Position numbers and translations under genes: made by a program. A DNA stretch of 64,000 nt from positions 11,829 through 75,828 of the IMG/VR virus record IMGVR_UViG_3300042898_000786, one strand, 5' to 3'. Within the stretch, counting starts at the first letter, position 1; each line of letters opens with the position of its first letter. Source of the DNA: a virus. The notes beneath the pieces are model-generated. The model had not been told where the DNA came from. It worked only from the letters and a program-made list of their open reading frames with translations, and searched no databases. Positions 11,808 to 43,750 of the stretch are shown here, one piece after another.

Positions 11808-14800
11808 ATGATGAATGAAGAACTAGACGGACTAGTATCTCTTGGAATTGAGCGAGGTAGGGATTTTCTCTATATCTCGAACATATTAAAAGAAGAAGGC
11901 TATTCTGAAGCTGATATTAAATCAGCAGAACAGTTTTATAATCAAAAAAAAAAATCCCAATCGGACTCTACATCCGCTTCGAAGCCAGCGATGGATTCTG
12001 GGGCTTCGGGATTGGGCGGTCCTCGCGTTGGAAAGTCAGGATTGGTTTCTGGCTTTTCAGAAGCATTTAAGGAAGTACAAGGTCAGCAAGTAGCTGTTCA
12101 GCAGGCTTCGGTAGTAGCCAACGAAAGAGAGGCACTAGGTGCTATTCAATTTGGCCTTACCGGTAAAGCTCCTCTTTCCTACCAACAGGAGAAACTTCTC
12201 GTTGCCGACAAAGAGAAAATTAGTTCTGAGTTTGAAGCTCAAAAGAGTCAATCTGCAAAGATATTCTTAGCTAATAAAGAAGCTGGTAACGACCCATATC
12301 AAGACCCGGAGTTTCAGGCTGCTAAGCAGAAAGAGAATGAATTTGTTGAGCGTGGAGCGAATGTAAATCGTCAGCTTCACCCAGAGTTACCTGAGGACGC
12401 GTTCGTGGCTTACAACGACCGTGGTGAGGCCAGAGAGACTCCTTTGTCTGAGACTAAGTACTTACAGTCAGCTATTAAAGTTATCCCCGGATTACAGCAA
12501 GATATAGACTTTGCTCGCATACAAGAGCGTAAGCAAGCTGAAGACGCAGTAGAAGCTGAAGAATTTCGTAAGTCTTACGAGTTTGGAAATATTCCAGTTA
12601 TAAGTAAAGCTGCTAATTTAGGAATTGCCGTGGCGTCAGGACTCACGGATATGGTGGCTAATGTCGCTGCATTTATTACAGAGCCCTTTGCTGGGACTAC
12701 TGATGAGTACGAAGGTATTATACCAGAGGTAGCTCAAAGCATATACGAAAGTGCTAAGTTTACCTCTAGTGCTATGCGACAGCAGCGTGGCGTTAACCTA
12801 GAGAACTACGGACTTACAGCTTCACAGCAGGAAAAGGACCCTTTCTCCCTTTGGGCTGAAGGAGATATTGAGGGCGGAAGCAAGTCTTTAGCTGTTATGG
12901 TTGCTGACGCTGCTTTGTTTAGCCGCGCAATTGGCGCACTATATGGAGTTGGAGGCACCGCCGCAAGAACACAAGTAGGCCAAGCAGTTTTGTCGACAGG
13001 TAAGGAAGGCGCTCAAGGTGTTGTGAATAACCTATCTCGCAACGTAGCAACTAATGTAGCTGATAGTCCTGCTATGTTTGGCGCTATGGCTACACTATCC
13101 GCTCAGCAGTCTTGGGACGCTGTTAAAGGCCGTGATGACCTTACTCTTTCTGAGAAGTTGTTTTATCAGTCTGTTGGGATTGCAGCAAATACCCTCACTG
13201 AAGCTCTTAACGTAGACGACCTACGGCTTGTAACAAAGGGACTTCCTTCTGCCCAGCGAGAAATAGCTCTTAAATCGTTCCGTGGTACTGTTAAAAGCTA
13301 CTTTGATGATGTAGCTAAGGTTGGTACGCCAGAGGCATTTGAAGAGACTTTAAACTTCTACGCTGATGCTTTTGCTAAGTATGTGATTGACGGAGAGTTA
13401 CCAACTATTACTGACCCGTTGTCTAGCATTGCTGTAGGCTTCCTAGCGCCATCACTTAATGTTACGGCCACCTATGCTCCTGCTATGATTGAAACAGCCC
13501 TCGCTACCACTCCGTGGAAGATGGCTAAGACCAAGGAGTTTGAACGCAATCGTAAGCTTGCTGACGAACGCGGCCGAATTGTAGAGGCTCTTGCTAATGA
13601 GAACCTACCGCAAAACGAAAAGAAAATACTTCAAAAAGCTCTTAACAATATTGAGACAGCTATTGAAGACCAAGAGCGCAAGGACTTTGAGTTCTATTCC
13701 GGTATGCAGTATGCTGATGCTAATGAGATTCTAAACATCCACGGACAGATTGGAACAAAAGTACAGCAGTATAAAAAGACACGCTCTAAAGAGCTACGTA
13801 CTGTTCTTGAGGCTGAGATTCGTGGACTTTATGGACGTAAAGTAGAAATAGAGAATAATTATGATAGTACGCAAAAATCAGGGATATCAAGTTCTGTCTT
13901 CCAAGGGCAAGCCACTGAGCAAGCCAAGCCTGAGCAAGGGGCAAGCCAAGAAACGATTGAAGCAAGTGGAGTTCTTCAAGTATCTACAGAAGAAGGCCCA
14001 GAAGTAACAGCAGAGCAGGAGACAACACGCCAAGAAGCATCTAAGGGCGCGTCAGAGGAGTTTGCTGTAGGGGCTGTTACTCCGGGTAAAGTAATTACAG
14101 AGGGATTAGCCCGTGTAATGAACAACATATTTAATGCGACTAAAGCTATTGTTCGTGGCGGCAAGGTGCAGTTCCACTATAGCCAAGAGTCTATTGCTGA
14201 TGCTAACGAGGTTACTCGTTCTCAGAAGGCCAAAAACCCAAAGATTTTCTTTGACGGATTTTACGACCGCACTAACAAAGTCTTTCACGTATATATCCCA
14301 ACTGCTGCCGACAGCGCTAAGGTTGTTAAGCAAGAGGATGGTAAGTACGCTCTTGTAGACCCAAAGTTCGCAGGTCAGGTAATCAAGACATACGACGACC
14401 GCACTACAGCATTCCAAGCCAAGCAGAAGTACGACGAGAACTACATTAAGTTCGCCACTAGTAAGGCGCGTCACGAAGCTATCCACCCAGTCATTGATGC
14501 TCTTATTCTTGAGGATAAGCCTATCCTTGATGAGAGCGGTAATCAAGTTGTAAATAACGCTGGCGAAAAGCAGTTTATCCCTAATAGCTTCCGTCAGTTC
14601 CTGTACGATAACATAGTAAGCCTGTACAGCTCTTCTCCTGACGCTCAGCGCATCTTCGATAACTTCCTGGACCCTTACATACAAAGTGGCGCTACGAGCG
14701 CTACAATGCAGCGTGAGGCAATCACGGAGTTCTTAGCTGCTATGGCAGACGAGAAGAAGTTTAAGCAGCTCGACAGAGGATTTGTGCAGAAAGTTAAAGA

Positions 14801-17800
14801 CATCGTCAATGAGTTATTAGTTCGTGCCGGTATACGTGACATCAGCATATCAACGGATGACGATTTGTATACTGTGGCTCGTGCGTTTAAGACCGCTATG
14901 GCCCTTGGCGTAGAGGTAAAGGTTCAGAAGGGCGGCTGGAAGAACTATACTCCAGTTGGGGAGGTATTCTCTGTGGGTATGTTAGATGGTCTTAAGGCTT
15001 CTAGTCTTACCGACAAACGTCTAAGAAGCATTATTACCGCTGGTAAGTTTGGTATGCTCACCGGGCAGAATCCCCGTGGTACCAAGTTTCCAGAGGAAGT
15101 TCGTGAGAAGTTTAACCGAGAAGCAGAAGCTTGGCTTAAATCTCGTGGGTACGAAGCCATTCCTATCCTTGGTAAGTTTGAAGGCATTGCAGAGAACAGT
15201 TTCCTAGTCCCTAACCTCACTTCTGACGATGCTCTTTTGTTTTCTCGTGAATTTAACCAAGAGGCTGTTGCACATAACTCTGGATTCATTCACTTCGATG
15301 GTTCATTTGAGCCGCGTAGGCCAGACAACAACGTATTCGGGGTAAAGTACGAAGACAAAGACACCGACTACTTCTCAGCCTTGCGAACTAAGGATGGCAA
15401 ACTAACAGCATTTAAGGTAGACTACAACTGGGATGTGCGTCTTAACTACCGCGCCTTAGAGGATGGCCTTACTAACCAAATTGACTTCTCTATCTCTATC
15501 CCAGAAGGTCAGACATACGCTGAGTTCTTCGACTCTATCGGTGACCAGTCAATGCGAGCTCAGGCTACAATGCTTCAACTACTCGCTGAGAAGGTCGGAT
15601 ACAGCAAGCCTATTCTATTCTCTACAAAAGGGACTACTTCTTTTGACGCAACAAAGGATTACACCATCTTTAACGTAGCGGAAGACCGTGAGCTTAACGA
15701 GTCTTTCGGTTACTTCGCTAACGCACTATCTACTATTATCTCTAAGGAGAATATGGGGCTTTACCGCTCGCTACTTGATGAGACTAAGAAAAACTTCCCA
15801 GAGCTCGTAGAGTCTAAGAAGAAAGAAGTTAAAGAAAAGTTTAATAACTACGATTTTGCCCCCGACCCACAGGCTAGTGCCGAGGCAGCCAGCGGCGACA
15901 GTTTTGTCGAGCGTTTAGCCATCAAGGCTGCACTTGACGAGAAAATGGTTGAATTCTTTAAAACCAACGAAACAGACTTCGAGGCTCTTCGCAAGAACTG
16001 GGAGACCAACAAGAAACTAATTGGTGAAGCCATCAACGTAGACATCACGGACATCGTCCCGAATATGAAGATTGACGGCGTGATGGAAATACTTGCTAGT
16101 CCGACTCGCGATATCTATGCCGCAACTGAAGTTGCTACTCGGCTAAAAAGAACGGCTCTCGGCGGCGGCGAATCCCTAACTGTAGATGAAGCTCGGTTGT
16201 CGATTCAGGAACTACAGAATGTTGCCGCAGTCGTTGGTCAGGATGCTGTTGTGGGACTCAATGGATTTGTAGCCAGCAAAGACTTGGTAGATGGCTTAGC
16301 TTTAATCTTAGTCGAGGTTGGTAAAACAAAAGACGGCACCTCTACTTTTAAGTTCAGTGAGAGCCCCGACTCTGCCACAAAGGGTGACGAGCTTCGTCAA
16401 AGACTAAGGAATATTGATTATGATGAGCTCTACGACTTGGCTCGTGGTTTCTGGATTGGCGCCTCGATGTCAAATCCAGAATTTGTCAGAGAATATCAGA
16501 ACTCTAATTTTGACGCTGAAATAGAAAAATTAAAAAGCTTTCTTGAAGAAACAGTTAATAATCTTAAAGATGTTGCCGCGAATACCCTTAGGGGGTCCAA
16601 TATAAGGAAAGCACTGGAGGTGATAGATGAATACAATAGTAGAATATTGACCGAAATAGAAAGTTCTCTCGGTAGGGCGTTTAACCCTTTTTCAAGCTAT
16701 GAGATTCTATACAATTCATACAACGACATCGCCTATGACGCTAAAGATTTTTTTGAGGCGGAGTTTAACAGACGTATAAACGACCCACGTCGTTTAATGA
16801 ATATGTCAATCAGGGGCGCAATAATAGAGATTAGCGAACTAGATACGTTTACTATTGAAGATGCGAAGGCTTACATAGCTTCAGAGCTATCAAATTCTGC
16901 GAATAATTTTGGTAAAATGAATACATCGGATGCAGTGTACGCAGATATTGATGGTTATTCAGTAGGCGGGGCAATGTATACCTTAAGTCCTGACGCAAAT
17001 TATTACAGATTGCGGGATTTTATTGGAAACGATAATCTTAGCTCTGTTGTATCTGACTATGGTCCGTTTAGTTACCGCCTAGGTGACGTTATAGGAGAAG
17101 CTAATTCTGCTATATCCCGAAGAACCGCCGAAGCTTCAAAGACAACACGATACAAGTTACCAGAGGCGGATGACTTCACCTCCGCTAGAATAGAAGTATT
17201 CATTCCTAAGCTTAACGATACATATGTGGTTACTGGTACTTACTATGATGGTGATGTTGGCGTAGCGTTTAGCTCTACAACTACAGGATATGACCTTAAA
17301 GACCCAGGGGCGGCTTTATCTGTTATGCCGGAAGTTATCAAGGCTATTAGCCGTATGTTCCCAGAGCGCGACGTTAAATCGATTTCATTCAGCCCTATTG
17401 ATGCCACCAGTAACAAACGTCAAGGTGGCGAGCTTCGTCGTGGTGTTTACCGTATGTTCGCTCAGCGCCTGTTCGGTAATTACTTCCCAGTAGGGTTAAC
17501 ATCAGATGATGAGAACGTCATTCCAATTCCTTACGCGTTCCGAAGCACTGAAAATACTAAGCCGGTGTACGAGGATATGGCGAACAAGCAAATCAACCGA
17601 CCTAGGGACATTGACTTCGCTATCTCTAACTTTGAGAACATCCCACAAGAAGTTACTCAGGGTCTAAATGCCATTAGCAATGCTGTTGCGTTCGCTTCAC
17701 AATCATCATTCGCAAATAAGCTATTGTTCAAGGATGAGCTTCAGAATCGATTTAAGTCTTACGAGAAAGAGCTTAAGAAGAAGTACGGTATCAAATCGTT

Positions 17801-32609: not shown

Positions 32610-32941
32610 AGTTCGTATGTGCTGTTTAACGTGTTGAATTTAATATAATCCTCTCGCTCCTCCAAAATTTCTGTAACAGGGCTAGTTTGCCAAGTAAAAA
32701 ACTGGTTAAATGGAGACATAATTAGTGAATAACCAATTGCTGGTTTATCGTGACGGGCTTTAAACTTATTTTCTCCATTCCATTCAACCCACATCACTTC
32801 CTTAGATTGGTTGGTTAGTCCGTCTCGTTCACGAACTAATTTCCAATTGAATTCGTTTTCAATTACATTTTGTTCAAGAGCAACTTTCAAGACATTATCT
32901 TCTAATGTCATTGGAATTTTAGTTTGTTTTAACTTGCTCAT
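32588..32941 (-). CDS. Hypothetical protein (cassette gene)
   Basis: ATG supplied by junction repeat 1; WQTSPVTEILE...FNT.NSTY.L motif. Confidence 0.7.
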   Translation of the reverse strand: MSKLKQTKIPMTLEDNVLKVALEQNVIENEFNWKLVRERDGLTNQSKEVMWVEWNGENKFKARHDKPAIGYSLIMSPFNQFFTWQTSPVTEILEEREDYIKFNTLNSTYELWKLKKD

Positions 32942-32953
32942 TTCTCGTTGGTG

Positions 32954-33106
32954 TTAAGGGTTAAGCAATAGCCAAACGCCAAACCACAGGTGCAATATAA
33001 TTGACCCAATAGCGCCAAACATTTTTGGTAACTCTTTTTGTTTTGACGCTGTTACGCCTGCGCCTACTGCTCCGAGAAGGAGGTAGATTGCGATAATTGT
33101 TTTCAT
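32954..33106 (-). CDS. Small two-TM membrane protein (50 aa, cassette gene)
   Basis: MKTIIAIYLLLGAVGAGVTASKQKELPKMFGAIGSIILHLWFGVWLLLNP; start and stop both lie inside junction repeats. Confidence 0.65.
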   Translation of the reverse strand: MKTIIAIYLLLGAVGAGVTASKQKELPKMFGAIGSIILHLWFGVWLLLNP

Positions 33107-33354
33107 TTCTCTTTGGTTTTAAATCGTAAACTGTAGTATTCTTCTGCGATGCCGCTATTAGGGTCGAGGTGCTGCATTTCCATACCTGTGTGGAATGACT
33201 CTATGATTTCAGCCATCTCTTTCTCAAGCATTGATTCTGCCTCATCAATTACATTAGACAATGCTTTTTGATAACCAGTCTGCCACTCATTTGATGCGGT
33301 CATTTGTTCTGCCTTAAGACTTTGAATAAGTTCTTGCATTGGTGTCTTCTTCAT
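33103..33354 (-). CDS. Hypothetical protein (cassette gene, ends KTKEK)
   Basis: MKKTPMQELI...; stop inside repeat 2. Confidence 0.65.
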   Translation of the reverse strand: MKKTPMQELIQSLKAEQMTASNEWQTGYQKALSNVIDEAESMLEKEMAEIIESFHTGMEMQHLDPNSGIAEEYYSLRFKTKEK

Positions 33355-33388
33355 AAGCAAATTTATTTGCGGTGAGGAGCCTTGCGAC

Positions 33389-33529
33389 TCATTTCTCGTT
33401 GGTTTTAAGCATTTCGTTTAGTTCAAGCATCAACTCAAATGTGTCAATGAGTTCATCAGTTGGTTCATCCTCCCGATGTATTAAACTTTGAGGCATTCCT
33501 ATTTCTATAATTTCAAGTATCCTTTTCAT
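33389..33529 (-). CDS. Hypothetical protein (46 aa, cassette gene, ends KTNEK)
   Basis: Translated by hand; runs repeat to repeat. Confidence 0.6.
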   Translation of the reverse strand: MKRILEIIEIGMPQSLIHREDEPTDELIDTFELMLELNEMLKTNEK

Positions 33530-33541
33530 TTATCGTTGGTG

Positions 33542-33760
33542 TTAAAGGTTTTCAATTTCAAAATATTCATAATATTCCTTAACCTCTTTTTTGGTTAATG
33601 CCTTTACCCAATCTTTACTTGCGTACAACGGCATTGATTTTCTCCCGTGAGGTTCTACTACAATTTCATCTATGTCGCATTGTGATTGCAATTCTACATC
33701 AGATATTGATGCAAGAACCCATACCAATGTTTGATTTTTAATTTCGTCAGTTATTTTCAT
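33542..33760 (-). CDS. Hypothetical protein (cassette gene)
   Basis: Starts in repeat 5 and stops at the TAA of repeat 4. Confidence 0.65.
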   Translation of the reverse strand: MKITDEIKNQTLVWVLASISDVELQSQCDIDEIVVEPHGRKSMPLYASKDWVKALTKKEVKEYYEYFEIENL

Positions 33761-33948
33761 TTCTCGTTGGTTTTGTATTCTTTATCAAAAGAATCTGCAA
33801 TCTCACGGGTGGTCAAATCTCCGTACTTGAAAGCGAAGTCAATCATCTGCTCCTTCTCAATTCTTTTTGCTTCTCTAATATCAAGTGGTGTGATTGTACC
33901 TTGCATCTCCCACATATTAACAAGCCACTCTACTGCTGTTTTTTTCAT
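33757..33948 (-). CDS. Hypothetical protein (cassette gene, MKKTAVEWL...EKEQMIDFA, ends KTNEK)
   Basis: Small-protein pattern typical of Bacteroidota phages; stop inside repeat 5. Confidence 0.7.
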   Translation of the reverse strand: MKKTAVEWLVNMWEMQGTITPLDIREAKRIEKEQMIDFAFKYGDLTTREIADSFDKEYKTNEK

Positions 33949-34006
33949 CTCTCTAAAATTTAATTGGTTTTGTTTGCCCTCATTTAACCGCATCAGGCTT
34001 CTCGGT

Positions 34007-34168
34007 TTATTTCTCTTTGGTGTTAGTCTTCCACTGGTATTCGCACTTGCCGTCCTTAATAGGTGAGTTCATAAAGTAGGATTGATACATATCTTCGGAG
34101 GCAGTGAATCGGTAGCAGGTCATCTTGAGGTCGCAATTTGCGCCACTACATTTAGTTATGTCGGTCAT
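34007..34168 (-). CDS. Small Cys-rich protein (53 aa, cassette gene, ends NTKEK)
   Basis: MTDITKCSGANCDLKMTCYRFTASEDMYQSYFMNSPIKDGKCEYQWKTNTKEK. Confidence 0.7.
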   Translation of the reverse strand: MTDITKCSGANCDLKMTCYRFTASEDMYQSYFMNSPIKDGKCEYQWKTNTKEK

Positions 34169-34259
34169 TTTTATTTAATTTAAAAGAAAAAGACTCCGTT
34201 AATCAGGGCGGTAGCTTGCCGCTTACTGAATCCTAATGCGCCATAAGCGGGCGGAGTTC

Positions 34260-34388
34260 TCATTTCTCTTTGGTGTTAAATTCATTTTCAGTATAGAAGT
34301 CCGTGCCTTCGTTGTCTTCTGGTTCGATGCCATTCTTAATCATATCAACGATTAACAACAGCTCGGTCATTGTCAGTTCTATTTTCAT
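34260..34388 (-). CDS. Hypothetical protein (42 aa, cassette gene, ends NTKEK)
   Basis: Translated by hand; ATGA-coupled to the upstream gene; stop inside repeat 7. Confidence 0.6.
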   Translation of the reverse strand: MKIELTMTELLLIVDMIKNGIEPEDNEGTDFYTENEFNTKEK

Positions 34389-40189: not shown

Positions 40190-40399
40190 TTAAAGTTCTA
40201 AAACTGCTAGTGAAAGGTTGCCCTCTCGGTCAAACCATCCCTCCTTGATTAAGGCGGTGGCAGTTCGGCCATAGTGGCCTTGAAGTTCCCAAGCCAAGCC
40301 ACTACGGACTAGTTCGGCAAAGAGGCACACGACTTCTTGGTCGTTGAGTGCGCCTTGTTCGTATGCGATGATGTTCGCGATTTGTGATGTGTTGTTCAT
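40190..40399 (-). CDS. Conserved small phage protein (IIAYEQG...LAW.LQGHYGR.A..LI..G)
   Basis: Recognisable phage motif; starts 21 nt after the cut site of hammerhead 1. Confidence 0.75.
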   Translation of the reverse strand: MNNTSQIANIIAYEQGALNDQEVVCLFAELVRSGLAWELQGHYGRTATALIKEGWFDREGNLSLAVLEL

Positions 40400-40414
40400 A
40401 CTGATTATCTATTT

Positions 40415-40466
40415 GGTTAAGATGCCTCACGGCATTTCGGCTAATGTCAAGCCTCTTCAGTTAACC
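40415..40466 (-). ncRNA. Type I hammerhead ribozyme (HHR1)
   Basis: GGUUAA CUGAAGA GGCU-UGACAUU-AGCC GAAA UGCC-GUGA-GGCA UC^ UUAACC; full catalytic core and three perfect stems; predicted cut between 40421 and 40420. Confidence 0.93.
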
Positions 40467-40643
40467 TTTGTTTTGCTCCACAAACTTTTCTAAAATGTCG
40501 AGAAGTTCGTCACCACATTTGTCTAACCTATCTTGAAGTTCGGGCGAAAGGTCGCTTGACTCAAGGTTGAATTCCTCGCACACTGAGTCGAACAGCAAAT
40601 CAATTTGAGAGGTAAGGATTCCGTAGATATTTTCGTTTTTCAT
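40461..40643 (-). CDS. Acidic 60-aa protein flanked by two hammerheads
   Basis: A-rich leader after the HHR2 cut site; its TAA stop is part of HHR1 stem I. Confidence 0.7.
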   Translation of the reverse strand: MKNENIYGILTSQIDLLFDSVCEEFNLESSDLSPELQDRLDKCGDELLDILEKFVEQNKG

Positions 40644-40658
40644 AATTTCTATTTGTTT

Positions 40659-40709
40659 GGTTAAGACCTACCGAAGTAGGTTTCGGGCATTAGCCCTCAT
40701 CAGTTAACC
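40659..40709 (-). ncRNA. Type I hammerhead ribozyme (HHR2)
   Basis: GGUUAA CUGAUGA GGGC-UAAU-GCCC GAAA CCUAC-UUCG-GUAGG UC^ UUAACC; canonical GUC site; predicted cut between 40665 and 40664. Confidence 0.95.
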
Positions 40710-40888
40710 TGCCACTCAGTAAGCGTAGTCCAACCGAATGCCGTCACGATACCGCGCCTCTGAAGTTGTTCTAGAACTTTGTACTCTTTAGTGGTATCTG
40801 CACCCAAGACAGACTCTACGCTATAAAAGGGTATGTCGGTTGCGATGCCGTCAACATACTCGCGGAAAAAGAAATTGTAAGTGTTCAT
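40700..40888 (-). CDS. Hypothetical early protein (62 aa)
   Basis: Its TGA stop is within the CUGA core of HHR2. Confidence 0.6.
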   Translation of the reverse strand: MNTYNFFFREYVDGIATDIPFYSVESVLGADTTKEYKVLEQLQRRGIVTAFGWTTLTEWQVN

Positions 40889-40917
40889 ATTGTTTGGATT
40901 TAGTTATTGAATTGTGT

Positions 40918-41274
40918 TTAGTTTTGGTCTCTATGGATTACGTTCACCAACTGAATGGCGGCATTGTCACCGATAAATTCACGGGCAGTGAGGTATGCCT
41001 CTGTGCGGCTCACTCGCAGTCCTCCTAAGAGGAAGTCGAATAGTGTGCCGTTCGTACTTTCTACGCTACGTACAAATACCGACTGATTGGTCAGTAATTT
41101 CATTAGCGACTTCACTAATTCAGCCTTGGTGTCGAACGCTTTTCGGGCGCTCCCTTGGCGAAGATTACCGACTTGTAGGAGTTTAGTGGTCTCTGCCTTG
41201 TCGGTGTAACGAATCAAGAATTCTACTTCGCGAGTTGTCTTTTTGCTTTGTAGTCTAACTTTGAACTCTCCCAT
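40918..41274 (-). CDS. First early protein (118 aa), hypothetical
   Basis: ATG at 41274 (MGEFKV) after an A-rich leader; the longer track start runs into the tRNA-like element. Confidence 0.65.
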   Translation of the reverse strand: MGEFKVRLQSKKTTREVEFLIRYTDKAETTKLLQVGNLRQGSARKAFDTKAELVKSLMKLLTNQSVFVRSVESTNGTLFDFLLGGLRVSRTEAYLTAREFIGDNAAIQLVNVIHRDQN

Positions 41275-41310
41275 TTTGATTTGATTTTTGAATTGATAAA
41301 AGAAAATTTG

Positions 41311-41358
41311 AGAGGGCGTTTGGTCTCGAACCAACGGCAACTAAATTGCTACGCCCCC
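41311..41358 (-). ncRNA. tRNA-like element lacking the anticodon arm
   Basis: 7-bp acceptor stem GGGGGCG/CGCCCUC, U8A9, short D-like hairpin GCAA-UUUAG-UUGC, T arm UUGG-UUCGAGA-CCAA. Confidence 0.6.
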
Positions 41359-41359
41359 A

Positions 41360-41757
41360 ATTGAACATCAACTTAGGGGTACCTTATCGTGTCGTTATGT
41401 GCAGTGATGCCGTGGTTCCACCGCAACGAGGTTGTCAGTCCTAAGAAGCACTAAGGAGCAGATGAGCATCGTTGTATCCGTGTAGCATATGTTCTAAGAA
41501 CTCATACGACCAAGGTCGCTCCGCTACACATCAACAAACCCGAACTCCATCACCACTCAGTAGCCGTACGTACATCAAAGTGCCGTGCGGTCATCTACCT
41601 AGTCGTGCGGAACTCCGCTCGCTTAGTGGTCACTATGGTTATGGGTTCAAGCCCCAAGGCACGCTTTTCGCTTACCATCTTCCTCGGCCCGCCTTACGGC
41701 TTCGTCCTCGAGGTGACCTCAACTCGTTTCCCTATTTGGGCGCAGTCGGTCGGTGAC
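41360..41757 (-). ncRNA. Candidate large structured ncRNA / early-operon leader
   Basis: No credible minus-strand ORF; GC-rich with many hairpins and long-range pairings; lies directly after a promoter. Confidence 0.5.
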
Positions 41758-41761
41758 ACTG

Positions 41762-41793
41762 CAATACTACAACAATCTAGATACGTTTGTCAA
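41762..41793 (-). promoter_or_regulatory. Putative major early promoter
   Basis: TTGACA-N18-TAGTATTG (near TAnnTTTG), pointing into the early operon; predicted TSS about 41757. Confidence 0.6.
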
Positions 41794-42717
41794 GTGTTGT
41801 TCAAAAAATAATTGTAAGTTGCTGAGAATCAGCGAGAAAAATTTCCACTCTGAATTATAATGTGTCTCTTACGCGTGTCATATTAATATACTAGCACCTG
41901 AGAACATAAGCCTAGCCTAGCAAGCACGTGCCGCTCTAGTATGCATTGAGCGTAGTGGGGGGAAGTGGGTTGAAGTGGGAGTAAGTGAGAGTGCTTAGGG
42001 GTAAGGTGTGGGGATTGTTGGAGGGTTCTGAGGTACTCGAACCATAACCCAAAACTAGTTGGCGGTAGGGTAGGAGCGGAGCCTACAACGGAGCCAATTA
42101 ACATAATATATATTATAGGATGCTTTTGGACACCGATTGCAACTCCGATACTAGAGCGAGGTAGGTCAAGGATAGTAGCACGTCCTAGTATGGCTACCAA
42201 AAGGCTAAAACATTGCAAGTGAATCATTTAACACGGAGGGGCATACGTTCAGCATTCCGTTTCGGTTCTTGGCTTGTAACGCTATTATAGTACGATAATC
42301 CCCACGGTACGTATAACTCAAACCAGAAATGCGATAACCGCATCCCGGAAGATTGCGTAATTCTGTTCAACACATATGCTTGTCCTTTGCAATGTGAACA
42401 GATTCTTATGTTATTTCTCGGAAGCGCATAGTTGCGCCTTTGCAAACGTAGTAAAAGTTAGAGCCTTGTTTGCAGTATCCGAATCAAGCTTTGGCCGGCT
42501 CCTTTTGCGCGGGGCGGTTTGGCCGCCCGCTTTTTCCGCCGTCTTAAGCGTTCTATTCGTTTTCGGTATTAGAAGCTTGCAGTCTATTAAGAGGAAGCTC
42601 TGCTTTAGCGAAGTTATAGTTAAAAATCGACATTAGCAAGTTTTTTACACACACTTATAATAGTCGTTATCAATTAGTTGACTAATAACCTACTAATTTA
42701 GTATGTGTTTATTCTGC

Positions 42718-43239
42718 CTAAAGTGAGTCCTGGGACTGCAAGAACATACGAAAATGGGTTTTCTCGTCCACCATAATGGGTATCCTTCCGTGTATCTTAT
42801 CTAGGTATCTCTTCACCACTCTTCTTCCTGCTATGCTGATGTTGAATCTAGCTGTTTGTTTATTGTTGCGTGCTGAGATGATTGGAAGGTCGTAGTCCTG
42901 AGCTGGGGAGTACTGCTTTAGGTGACCGCCATCTACCATAGGCTGTACTACCATATCCATAAAGTTGTCGAACCGTCCTGTATAACCGAACGCACACATA
43001 GTATAGCGTATCGAGAATATCTCCAGGTCGTATACGAAGAACAGGAACATAAGCTGTCTCTGGTCTATGTTATAGCTATTCTTGGCGTCTGTGAACACGT
43101 GGTTCAACAGCTTCAGTATATTATACTGGTCGTGGACAAGGTCCTTTCGCTCTCTGTGCTCGTCGATTCGTTTTGCTTGAAGCTCTGCCATACGGCGTAG
43201 TTTCTCACTACGAGAGGGTTTCTTTCTGTAGCTCGGCAT
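42718..43239 (-). CDS. Putative winged-helix (MarR-like) DNA-binding protein
   Basis: Helical core, V.P.V..G.L and wing ...F.IS..GR..V..Y pattern; divergent from the late operon. Confidence 0.5.
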   Translation of the reverse strand: MPSYRKKPSRSEKLRRMAELQAKRIDEHRERKDLVHDQYNILKLLNHVFTDAKNSYNIDQRQLMFLFFVYDLEIFSIRYTMCAFGYTGRFDNFMDMVVQPMVDGGHLKQYSPAQDYDLPIISARNNKQTARFNISIAGRRVVKRYLDKIHGRIPIMVDEKTHFRMFLQSQDSL

Positions 43240-43273
43240 ATTGTATTGAATTATCTCGTAAAGATACTATGTT

Positions 43274-43281
43274 TATTTTTG
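43274..43281 (+). promoter_or_regulatory. Bacteroidota -7 element (TATTTTTG), predicts a leaderless mRNA
   Basis: 4 nt before the ATG at 43286. Confidence 0.6.
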
Positions 43282-43285
43282 CGGT

Positions 43286-43750
43286 ATGAAACTAAGTAAC
43301 TATGTATCGCTGTCTGAGGTCACTAAGAGTGATACCGCCAGCCGCCGGGGTATCAGCAACGAACCCACACCAGAACACCTAGAGAACCTAAAGACAATCT
43401 GTACTGAGGTATTCGATAAGATACGTGAGCACTTCGGTGTTCCTATCTACATCTCTTCGGGCTACCGGTCTGCTGCCTTGAATAAGGCTATCGGGGGGAG
43501 CTCTACCTCGGACCATAATCTAGGAAGGGCTTTGGACCTGGACCAAGATTTTAGGTCTAACGGTATAACCAATATGGATGTTTTTAAATTCATTAAGGAC
43601 AACCTGGAATTTGACCAGCTTATCTATGAGTTTGGAAACAGCAAGAACCCCGACTGGGTTCACGTTGGATATCGTAAGGGAGCGAACAGGAAGCAGATAC
43701 TTATAGCCTATAAGGACGGCGCTAAGACAAAATACAAAGCATTTAAATAA
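43286..43750 (+). CDS. Endolysin, peptidase M15A family
   Basis: ISSGYRS..LN.AIGG...SDH..G.A.D, FDQLIYEF, WVHV motifs. Confidence 0.9.
   Translation: MKLSNYVSLSEVTKSDTASRRGISNEPTPEHLENLKTICTEVFDKIREHFGVPIYISSGYRSAALNKAIGGSSTSDHNLGRALDLDQDFRSNGITNMDVFKFIKDNLEFDQLIYEFGNSKNPDWVHVGYRKGANRKQILIAYKDGAKTKYKAFK

Follow-up and report, generated by a model that had tools for sequence, protein, structure and literature searches.

What do two self-cleaving RNA motifs accomplish when they bracket a 60-codon gene in the genome of a dsDNA phage? The question is raised by a 64-kb stretch of DNA (hereafter the window; bases 11829-75828 of a 75.8-kb IMG/VR record rated complete by CheckV), in which a sequence-only reading had noticed two hammerhead ribozymes on the minus strand, and had proposed both that they process an early polycistronic transcript and that they may release a self-circularising, protein-coding RNA. 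The DNA comes from an uncultured crAss-like phage of freshwater, and its relatives in culture infect Flavobacteriia (Flavobacterium, Cellulophaga). It encodes a terminase, a portal, a crAss muzzle-protein domain, a 3315-aa ORF, a BT4734-type primase-helicase, a ribonucleotide reductase and an exonuclease, and its terminase is nearest (39-45% identity) to those of Flavobacterium “elemo” phages, Cellulophaga crAss-like phages and a spring-water phage. The stretch was contained in 23 DNA and one RNA sequencing runs from lake or freshwater metagenomes, and no nucleotide match to 6 kb of the region was found among cultured-phage records. All four of the runs aligned to the window consisted of assembled contigs, in which transcript ends, depth profiles and back-splices are not visible.

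The hammerheads lie near the head of a leftward gene block, which runs from small ORFs through DUF932, primase and reductase genes to the exonuclease, and the neighboring ORFs are all encoded on the strand of the hammerheads. No terminator-like sites were seen between the flanking ORFs in a local scan, and scans for sigma-70-type promoters and for terminators performed no better than on shuffled sequences. Judging from gene order, expression of this block is probably early. The ORF between the two ribozymes (ORF60) encodes a small, acidic product with two conserved cysteines, for which homologs were found in 25 clusters (70-100% identity, with conservation at the protein level), and is a real, conserved small protein. 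Neither ORF60 nor the 62-aa ORF upstream, which is 100% identical in the related contig L011, had a Pfam or PHROG match. The 69-aa DUF7417 ORF downstream also has a hammerhead immediately ahead of it in L011 and L137, whereas none is present there in L003-L010 or L136.

Both motifs are complete type I hammerheads, as had been claimed (Table 1). All core positions (C3 U4 G5 A6 N7 G8 A9, and G12 A13 A14) are present in each, the G10.1-C11.1 and A15.1-U16.1 pairs are kept, the H17 position is occupied by C17, and stems I/II/III comprise 6/4/6 bp in HHR1 and 6/4/5 bp in HHR2 with zero mismatches. Stem I is open while stems II and III are loop-closed, as in type I. Re-reading of the sequences likewise bore out that stems II and III differ between the two copies yet pair perfectly, with identical stem I arms, and that the piece between the two predicted cuts (40664-40421, 244 nt) includes an A-rich leader and the whole of ORF60. 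The spacing of the two ribozymes is 243 nt, with this one ORF between them, and its last codon (GGU) and UAA stop constitute the 5′ arm of HHR2 stem I, the UAA being bases 4-6 of the arm.

Table 1. Coordinates of the two hammerheads, their elements and the adjoining ORFs and leaders (positions in the window; sequences 5′ to 3′ on the minus strand, loops in lower case).
Feature	Position	Strand	Sequence or remark
62-aa ORF upstream of HHR1	40700..40888	-	UGA stop 40702-40700 = U4-G5-A6 of HHR1 core
HHR1, hammerhead type I	40659..40709	-	predicted cut 40665/40664; 64.1 bits (family covariance model)
HHR1 stem I 5′ arm	40709-40704	-	GGUUAA
HHR1 core	40703-40697	-	CUGAUGA
HHR1 stem II hairpin	40696-40685	-	GGGC-uaau-GCCC
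HHR1 GAA	40684-40682	-	GAA
HHR1 stem III hairpin	40681-40666	-	ACCUAC-uucg-GUAGGU
HHR1 C17	40665	-	C
HHR1 stem I 3′ arm	40664-40659	-	UUAACC
Leader after cut 1, 21 nt	40644..40664	-	UUAACCAAACAAAUAGAAAUU; then AUG at 40643
60-aa ORF (ORF60) between hammerheads	40461..40643	-	starts 21 nt after cut 1
HHR2, hammerhead type I	40415..40466	-	predicted cut 40421/40420; 61.9 bits (family covariance model)
HHR2 stem I 5′ arm	40466-40461	-	GGUUAA
HHR2 core	40460-40454	-	CUGAAGA
HHR2 stem II hairpin	40453-40439	-	GGCU-ugacauu-AGCC
HHR2 GAA	40438-40436	-	GAA
HHR2 stem III hairpin	40435-40422	-	AUGCC-guga-GGCAU
HHR2 C17	40421	-	C
HHR2 stem I 3′ arm	40420-40415	-	UUAACC
Leader after cut 2, 21 nt	40400..40420	-	UUAACCAAAUAGAUAAUCAGU; then AUG at 40399; identical in L011
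69-aa ORF downstream of HHR2	40190..40399	-	DUF7417 / phrog_3908, E 2.7e-23 / 2.5e-23

A structure-aware scan of both strands of the window returned HHR1 and HHR2 only, for a chance expectation of 0.025 matches on average per shuffled window (200 shuffles, with looser stem limits). With the family covariance model (R1), the next-best match in the window after these two reached 13.8 bits, and no third family copy was found in the whole 75.8-kb record. This next-best, hammerhead-like candidate (12694-12772, plus strand, E 0.31) has a poor stem III and lies within the 3315-aa ORF, and was rejected as a chance match. In the Rfam search that had been suggested as a check, there were zero matches at gathering thresholds across the window, and in E-value mode only weak ones, to Hammerhead_HH9 (18.6 bits, E 0.09) and RAGATH-1-hammerhead (17.2 bits). 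These sub-threshold scores reflect the reach of the models, as no catalytic feature is missing. In the minimum-energy fold of 336 nt of native context, the stem II and III hairpins are formed but part of the HHR1 stem I arm is diverted to other pairings, hence folding may depend on co-transcriptional kinetics. Stem I is short in both ribozymes (6 bp, of which four are A-U pairs).

When viral contigs were scanned for the pattern and then for the structure, more than 100 similar ribozymes were recovered. The fetch pattern demanded no pairing in stems II and III, and both stems were formed in 64 of 125 distinct pattern matches (51%, vs. 0.4% when shuffled), with 21 stem II and 42 stem III sequences among those matches. 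In an alignment of 78 distinct copies, both-side changes occurred at 12 of 15 pairs, with a covariation score of 0.657 (vs. 0.141 for shuffled and ≤0.105 for slid partners), although these copies were pre-chosen for pairing, which makes the 125-match test the unbiased one. Compensatory changes keep the RNA fold and not the DNA sequence, indicating that selection acts on the RNA. Stem I is exactly 6 bp long in nearly all copies and nearly invariant (GGUUAA/UUAACC or GAUUAA/UUAAUC) in this sample, for which the seed pattern contained UUAA in stem I, a choice that biases the frequencies of this stem upward. It is flanked by A at −1 (94%) and +1 (90%), and the loop II consensus is U-N-A-R-U; together, this A/A cap and loop II signature could represent a conserved stem I/loop II contact typical of fast natural hammerheads, in which such a contact is required for rapid cleavage at cellular Mg2+. 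Loop II is 4 nt long in HHR1 and 7 nt in HHR2, compared to the usual 5 in the family, and pseudoknot complementarity between loop II and the flank was the same as for permuted loops.

The position of these ribozymes relative to genes is regular across the family. An ORF of at least 35 codons lies directly upstream of 78 out of 90 copies, with its stop in or just before the 5′ part of the ribozyme: the stop was a UAA in stem I 23 times and a UGA in the core 22 times, and the other 33 of these 78 ORFs end 7-12 nt ahead of the core. The motif itself offers UAA and UGA, in two frames. Downstream, the distance from the cut to the next ATG is mostly 18-27 nt (median 22), and the leaders are A-rich and usually without a Shine-Dalgarno sequence. 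What varies is the identity of the flanked gene, since the same ribozyme types surround other ORFs in relatives. Copies of the HHR1 type in L003, L006, L009 and L136 keep stem III with a changed and compensated stem II, and HHR2-type copies, identical or compensated, occur in L006, L009, L010, L011, L037, L172 and L173. Across the family, we thus observe selection on the motif, a fixed position between stop and start, and a variable placement among genes.

Arrays of two to eight copies were found on other contigs, and some copies lie in genomes of Bacteroidota (Mucilaginibacter, Pedobacter, Niabella and Riemerella). Among cultured phages, Flavobacterium phage vB_FspP_elemoE_6-9C (NC_055854.1, L170) has one family hammerhead (16304-16361, minus strand, 47.1 bits), which sits between gp64 and gp66, and this phage grows on Flavobacterium sp. 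BAL314; the 35-aa CDS annotated over it on the opposite strand, gp65, is probably spurious. Family copies were absent from Cellulophaga phage phi14:2 and from the Manatee Spring relative. Three further short contigs, L147 and L152 (both from a MAG labeled Aliivibrio sp. Ust_30) as well as L161, display 8, 6, and 5 family hammerheads in 5.8, 2.7, and 2.9 kb, respectively, and probably represent phage sequence that ended up in bacterial MAGs on binning. Some relatives display core variants (L003-L005 and L007, 1574-1626 and 2020-2069; L136, 2413-2465): one copy has an extra U between A9 and G10.1, and, in L003-L005 and L007 only, the other copy has a U4-to-C change (CCGACGA). These variants are otherwise intact; they may represent slowed or inactive ribozymes, and not every copy need be active.

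Several other RNA and DNA features were noted in the window. At 41309-41358 (minus strand), a tRNA-like minihelix combines an acceptor-like stem of 7-8 bp, a T-arm (UUGG-UUCGAGA-CCAA) and a small hairpin (fold of −20.4 kcal/mol, z −2.95), on which ARAGORN makes no call. It stands ahead of the leader of the ORF at 41274-40918. The homologous ORF in L006, L009, and L010 is preceded at this spot by a hammerhead and the same leader, and this alternation hints that such RNA-processing signals are interchangeable. An ORF-free and G+C-richer stretch (41362-41762, minus strand), located ahead of the first small ORFs, has no Rfam family at E ≤ 1; the deepest contig of the RNA run (depth 43, 328 nt) covers 41421-41750, and we consider 41362-41762 a candidate abundant non-coding RNA. 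At 32938-34284, in the gene block of the hammerheads, a ribozyme-free second kind of conserved intercistronic joint consists of seven junction repeats (minus strand UUAACACCAACGAGAAAUGA; stop, 12 nt, start) that are spaced 137-286 nt apart and each bound a micro-ORF, and the start of this repeat resembles the post-cleavage leader UUAACCAAAC. Finally, read depth about doubles (from 38.6 to 60-80) over 40400-43400 in the likely source run, which suggests that a second co-occurring strain or phage shares this stretch.

As both hammerheads share the coding strand with the small ORFs around them and no terminator-like site intervenes, they are most naturally read as sites of polycistron processing, and we consider it likely that HHR1 and HHR2 are active-type ribozymes that serve as intercistronic processing sites in the leftward polycistronic transcript. 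In such a scheme, the ribozyme would start on the stop codon of the preceding gene, fold upon transcription, and cut after C17, 21 nt ahead of the next start codon. The upstream mRNA would retain its stop codon and terminate in the compact stem II/III fold with a 2′,3′-cyclic phosphate, and the downstream mRNA would carry a 5′-OH on a short, A-rich and unstructured leader devoid of a Shine-Dalgarno sequence. The flanking genes would thereby end up on separate mRNAs, free to differ in stability and translation. As a by-product or second role, the conserved combination of hammerhead, leader and ATG acts as a movable joint for the gain, loss or replacement of small accessory ORFs between related phages. 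Cleavage in vivo, its effects on stability and translation, and its early timing are what we infer for this locus; a ribosome terminating on the upstream ORF would sit on the 5′ half of the ribozyme, which makes the in vivo efficiency of cleavage uncertain. The processing part of the sequence-only proposal is hence supported by selection, strand and the lack of terminator-like sites, with its “early” qualifier read from gene order only. The same reading was given in 2011 for clustered prophage hammerheads, which flank single genes and cleave in vitro as well as in vivo in E. coli (Perreault et al., PMC3088659), and the role of phage hammerheads was still described as unproven in a 2019 review (PMC6765202). 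The RNA run consists of assembled contigs from 90-95% similar relatives with partial coverage, in which transcript ends are not visible. One RNA contig that diverges at 40420 into unrelated upstream sequence reflects a strain difference, not a junction.

Two other readings take the same layout as their starting point. Ribosomes finishing the upstream ORF could unfold the ribozyme, such that cutting would depend on the level of upstream translation: a ribosome footprint extends ~12-15 nt beyond the A site, and the stops of both upstream ORFs (62-aa and 60-aa) lie within ribozymes, as do 45 of the 78 in the family (in stem I or core). Such an overlap is nevertheless not required, given the 33 upstream ORFs that stop short of the core, and it is equally explained by genome compaction combined with the stop codons inherent to the motif, and we regard translational control of this kind as quite unlikely. 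Alternatively, the modules might be cassette joints first, with hammerhead, leader and ATG acting as DNA homology islands for the exchange of accessory genes and cleavage being secondary. Recombination at hammerhead-plus-leader modules is indeed observed among the contigs compared. Relative to L011, the window carries exactly one extra hammerhead-to-hammerhead unit, and the L011 ribozyme combines an HHR1-like 5′ half (with a compensated stem II) and a 3′ half identical to HHR2, so that the joint falls in the shared core. In L006/L008, a gene other than ORF60 stands between ribozymes of these two types, and in L009/L010 they are surrounded by other genes. An unrelated 71-aa ORF follows an HHR2-type ribozyme in L172 and L173, with a leader and ATG exactly those of ORF60. 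Positions 40475, 40640, 40656, and 40710 are precisely where co-occurring lake strains part from the window, and breaks between assembly unitigs fall within both ribozymes. The compensatory changes, however, place selection at the RNA and not the DNA level, a hammerhead-free indel is found next door (L011 is devoid of the ORF at 41274-40918, with the joint in plain A-rich leaders), and conserved islands are expected wherever an element is more constrained than its neighbors, the identical stretches here being only 6-13 nt long. Exchange as the primary function thus appears improbable to us.

The most striking proposal for this locus was that, once both cuts are made, the 244-nt piece refolds (its 5′ UUAACC pairing with the GGUUAA of HHR2) and is religated to a nuclease-resistant, translatable ORF60 circle, with the re-formed ribozyme or an RtcB-type host ligase closing it, as a lineage-specific use of arms that are identical family-wide. 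Hammerhead chemistry is reversible, and ends with a 5′-OH and a 2′,3′-cyclic phosphate suit RtcB. The identical stem I arms of HHR1 and HHR2 are swappable, the centroid fold predicted for the 244-nt piece pairs 5′ UAACC with the GGUUA of HHR2, arms are swappable in 24 of 40 adjacent family pairs, and the conserved A/A cap and loop II signature would suggest a tertiary contact that favors ligation in other hammerheads. Refolding of the excised piece is thus possible on paper, but a circle as its purpose finds no support in the comparisons. In L011, the nearest relative, where the flanking proteins are 96-100% identical, there is a single hammerhead and no ORF60; in the two ORF60 homolog contexts compared, L137 has no hammerhead upstream and L136 shares the ORF60 unit with a second ORF. 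The survey of related phages that had been suggested did find hammerheads around varying ORFs, but no conserved unit of hammerhead, ORF60 and hammerhead. Arms are not swappable in the remaining 16 of 40 adjacent pairs (L017/L126, L030, L055, L058, L033/L040), in at least 20 loci the hammerhead stands alone, with >2 kb on each side, and the identity of the arms is explained by the family-wide GGUUAA consensus, which is also the source of the stop codon. The phage is without an RtcB or Rnl2-family (PF09414) ligase in our searches, and a search for the T4 Rnl1 family gave no match, but neither did its controls. A 6-bp, mostly A-U stem I should moreover release the 3′ product fast. For other arrays, a search by Perreault et al. 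for products that were circular or spliced came out negative (data not shown there; PMC3088659). Permuted contigs were absent from the RNA run, a weak check as the run consists of contigs assembled from 90-95% similar relatives. The back-splice reads proposed as a diagnostic would yield false positives, since the predicted junction GAGGCAUC-UUAACCAAACAAAUAG occurs colinearly, as ordinary DNA, in the L172 and L173 contigs (4,954 and 2,528 nt), and metatranscriptome junction reads alone cannot prove circles. Circularisation is chemically possible, but the comparative evidence stands against it as a function, and we consider it very unlikely; if true, it would be the first case of a dsDNA phage with an RNA circle that is made by ribozymes and codes for protein.

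Intercistronic processing being the reading that we prefer, the locus is of interest for its regularity. Gene-flanking hammerheads have been known from phages since 2011, and what is new here is a tidy subfamily with a very regular layout (stop codon, 51-nt ribozyme, ~22-nt leader, start codon), which is common in phages of Bacteroidota-type hosts including a crAss-like lineage, and copies of which are missed by standard Rfam annotation. This layout makes the processing hypothesis directly testable, and the copy in the cultured phage elemoE_6-9C offers a direct experimental route. Hammerhead-plus-leader modules at the joints of swapped accessory genes should also be useful for reading phage mosaicism. 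A practical warning follows from the relatives in which the predicted circle junction is ordinary DNA.

Among known systems, the closest in context are the phage clusters of Perreault et al. (2011, PLoS Comput Biol, PMC3088659), in which same-strand hammerheads likewise occur within a few kb of phage DNA and flank varying genes, and for which the role put forward, as here, was to cut long phage transcripts into gene-length mRNAs. Unlike those clusters, the ribozymes described here are compact type I hammerheads with a 6-bp stem I, an overlap with the upstream stop and a cut ~22 nt before the start, and their phages, crAss-like ones among them, often have leaders of the Bacteroidota style. Their stem I plus core sequence was not found among the supplementary files searched from that study, nor GGUUAACUGAUGAG in the literature searched. 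The catalytic core and three-way junction are shared with the families of Rfam clan CL00010 (Hammerhead_1, _3, _II, HH9, HH10) and with RAGATH-1-hammerhead (RF03152), the latter resembling them further in its phage-associated context and in a stem I that is short and open; scores nonetheless fall far under gathering (18.6 vs. 52 for HH9, 17.2 vs. 56.3 for RAGATH-1), and Rfam would consequently leave such copies unannotated.

The arrangement of two same-sense hammerheads bracketing a unit with joinable ends is also that of the retrozymes and viroid-like RNAs described by de la Pena and colleagues (PMC5680766, PMC7761336). These are eukaryotic and mostly non-coding, replicate or retrotranspose, have mainly type III hammerheads in plants, and their circles have been observed (PMC5680766, PMC7761336), whereas the piece considered here is a protein-coding part of a dsDNA phage operon, belongs to an unconserved unit, and is known from sequence alone. 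By functional analogy only, the RNase III sites in the T7 early region are comparable, in that intercistronic cuts turn one early transcript into separate stable mRNAs. In T7, hairpins are cut by a host protein nuclease, while in the phage described here the RNA would cut itself, leaving ends of a different chemistry.
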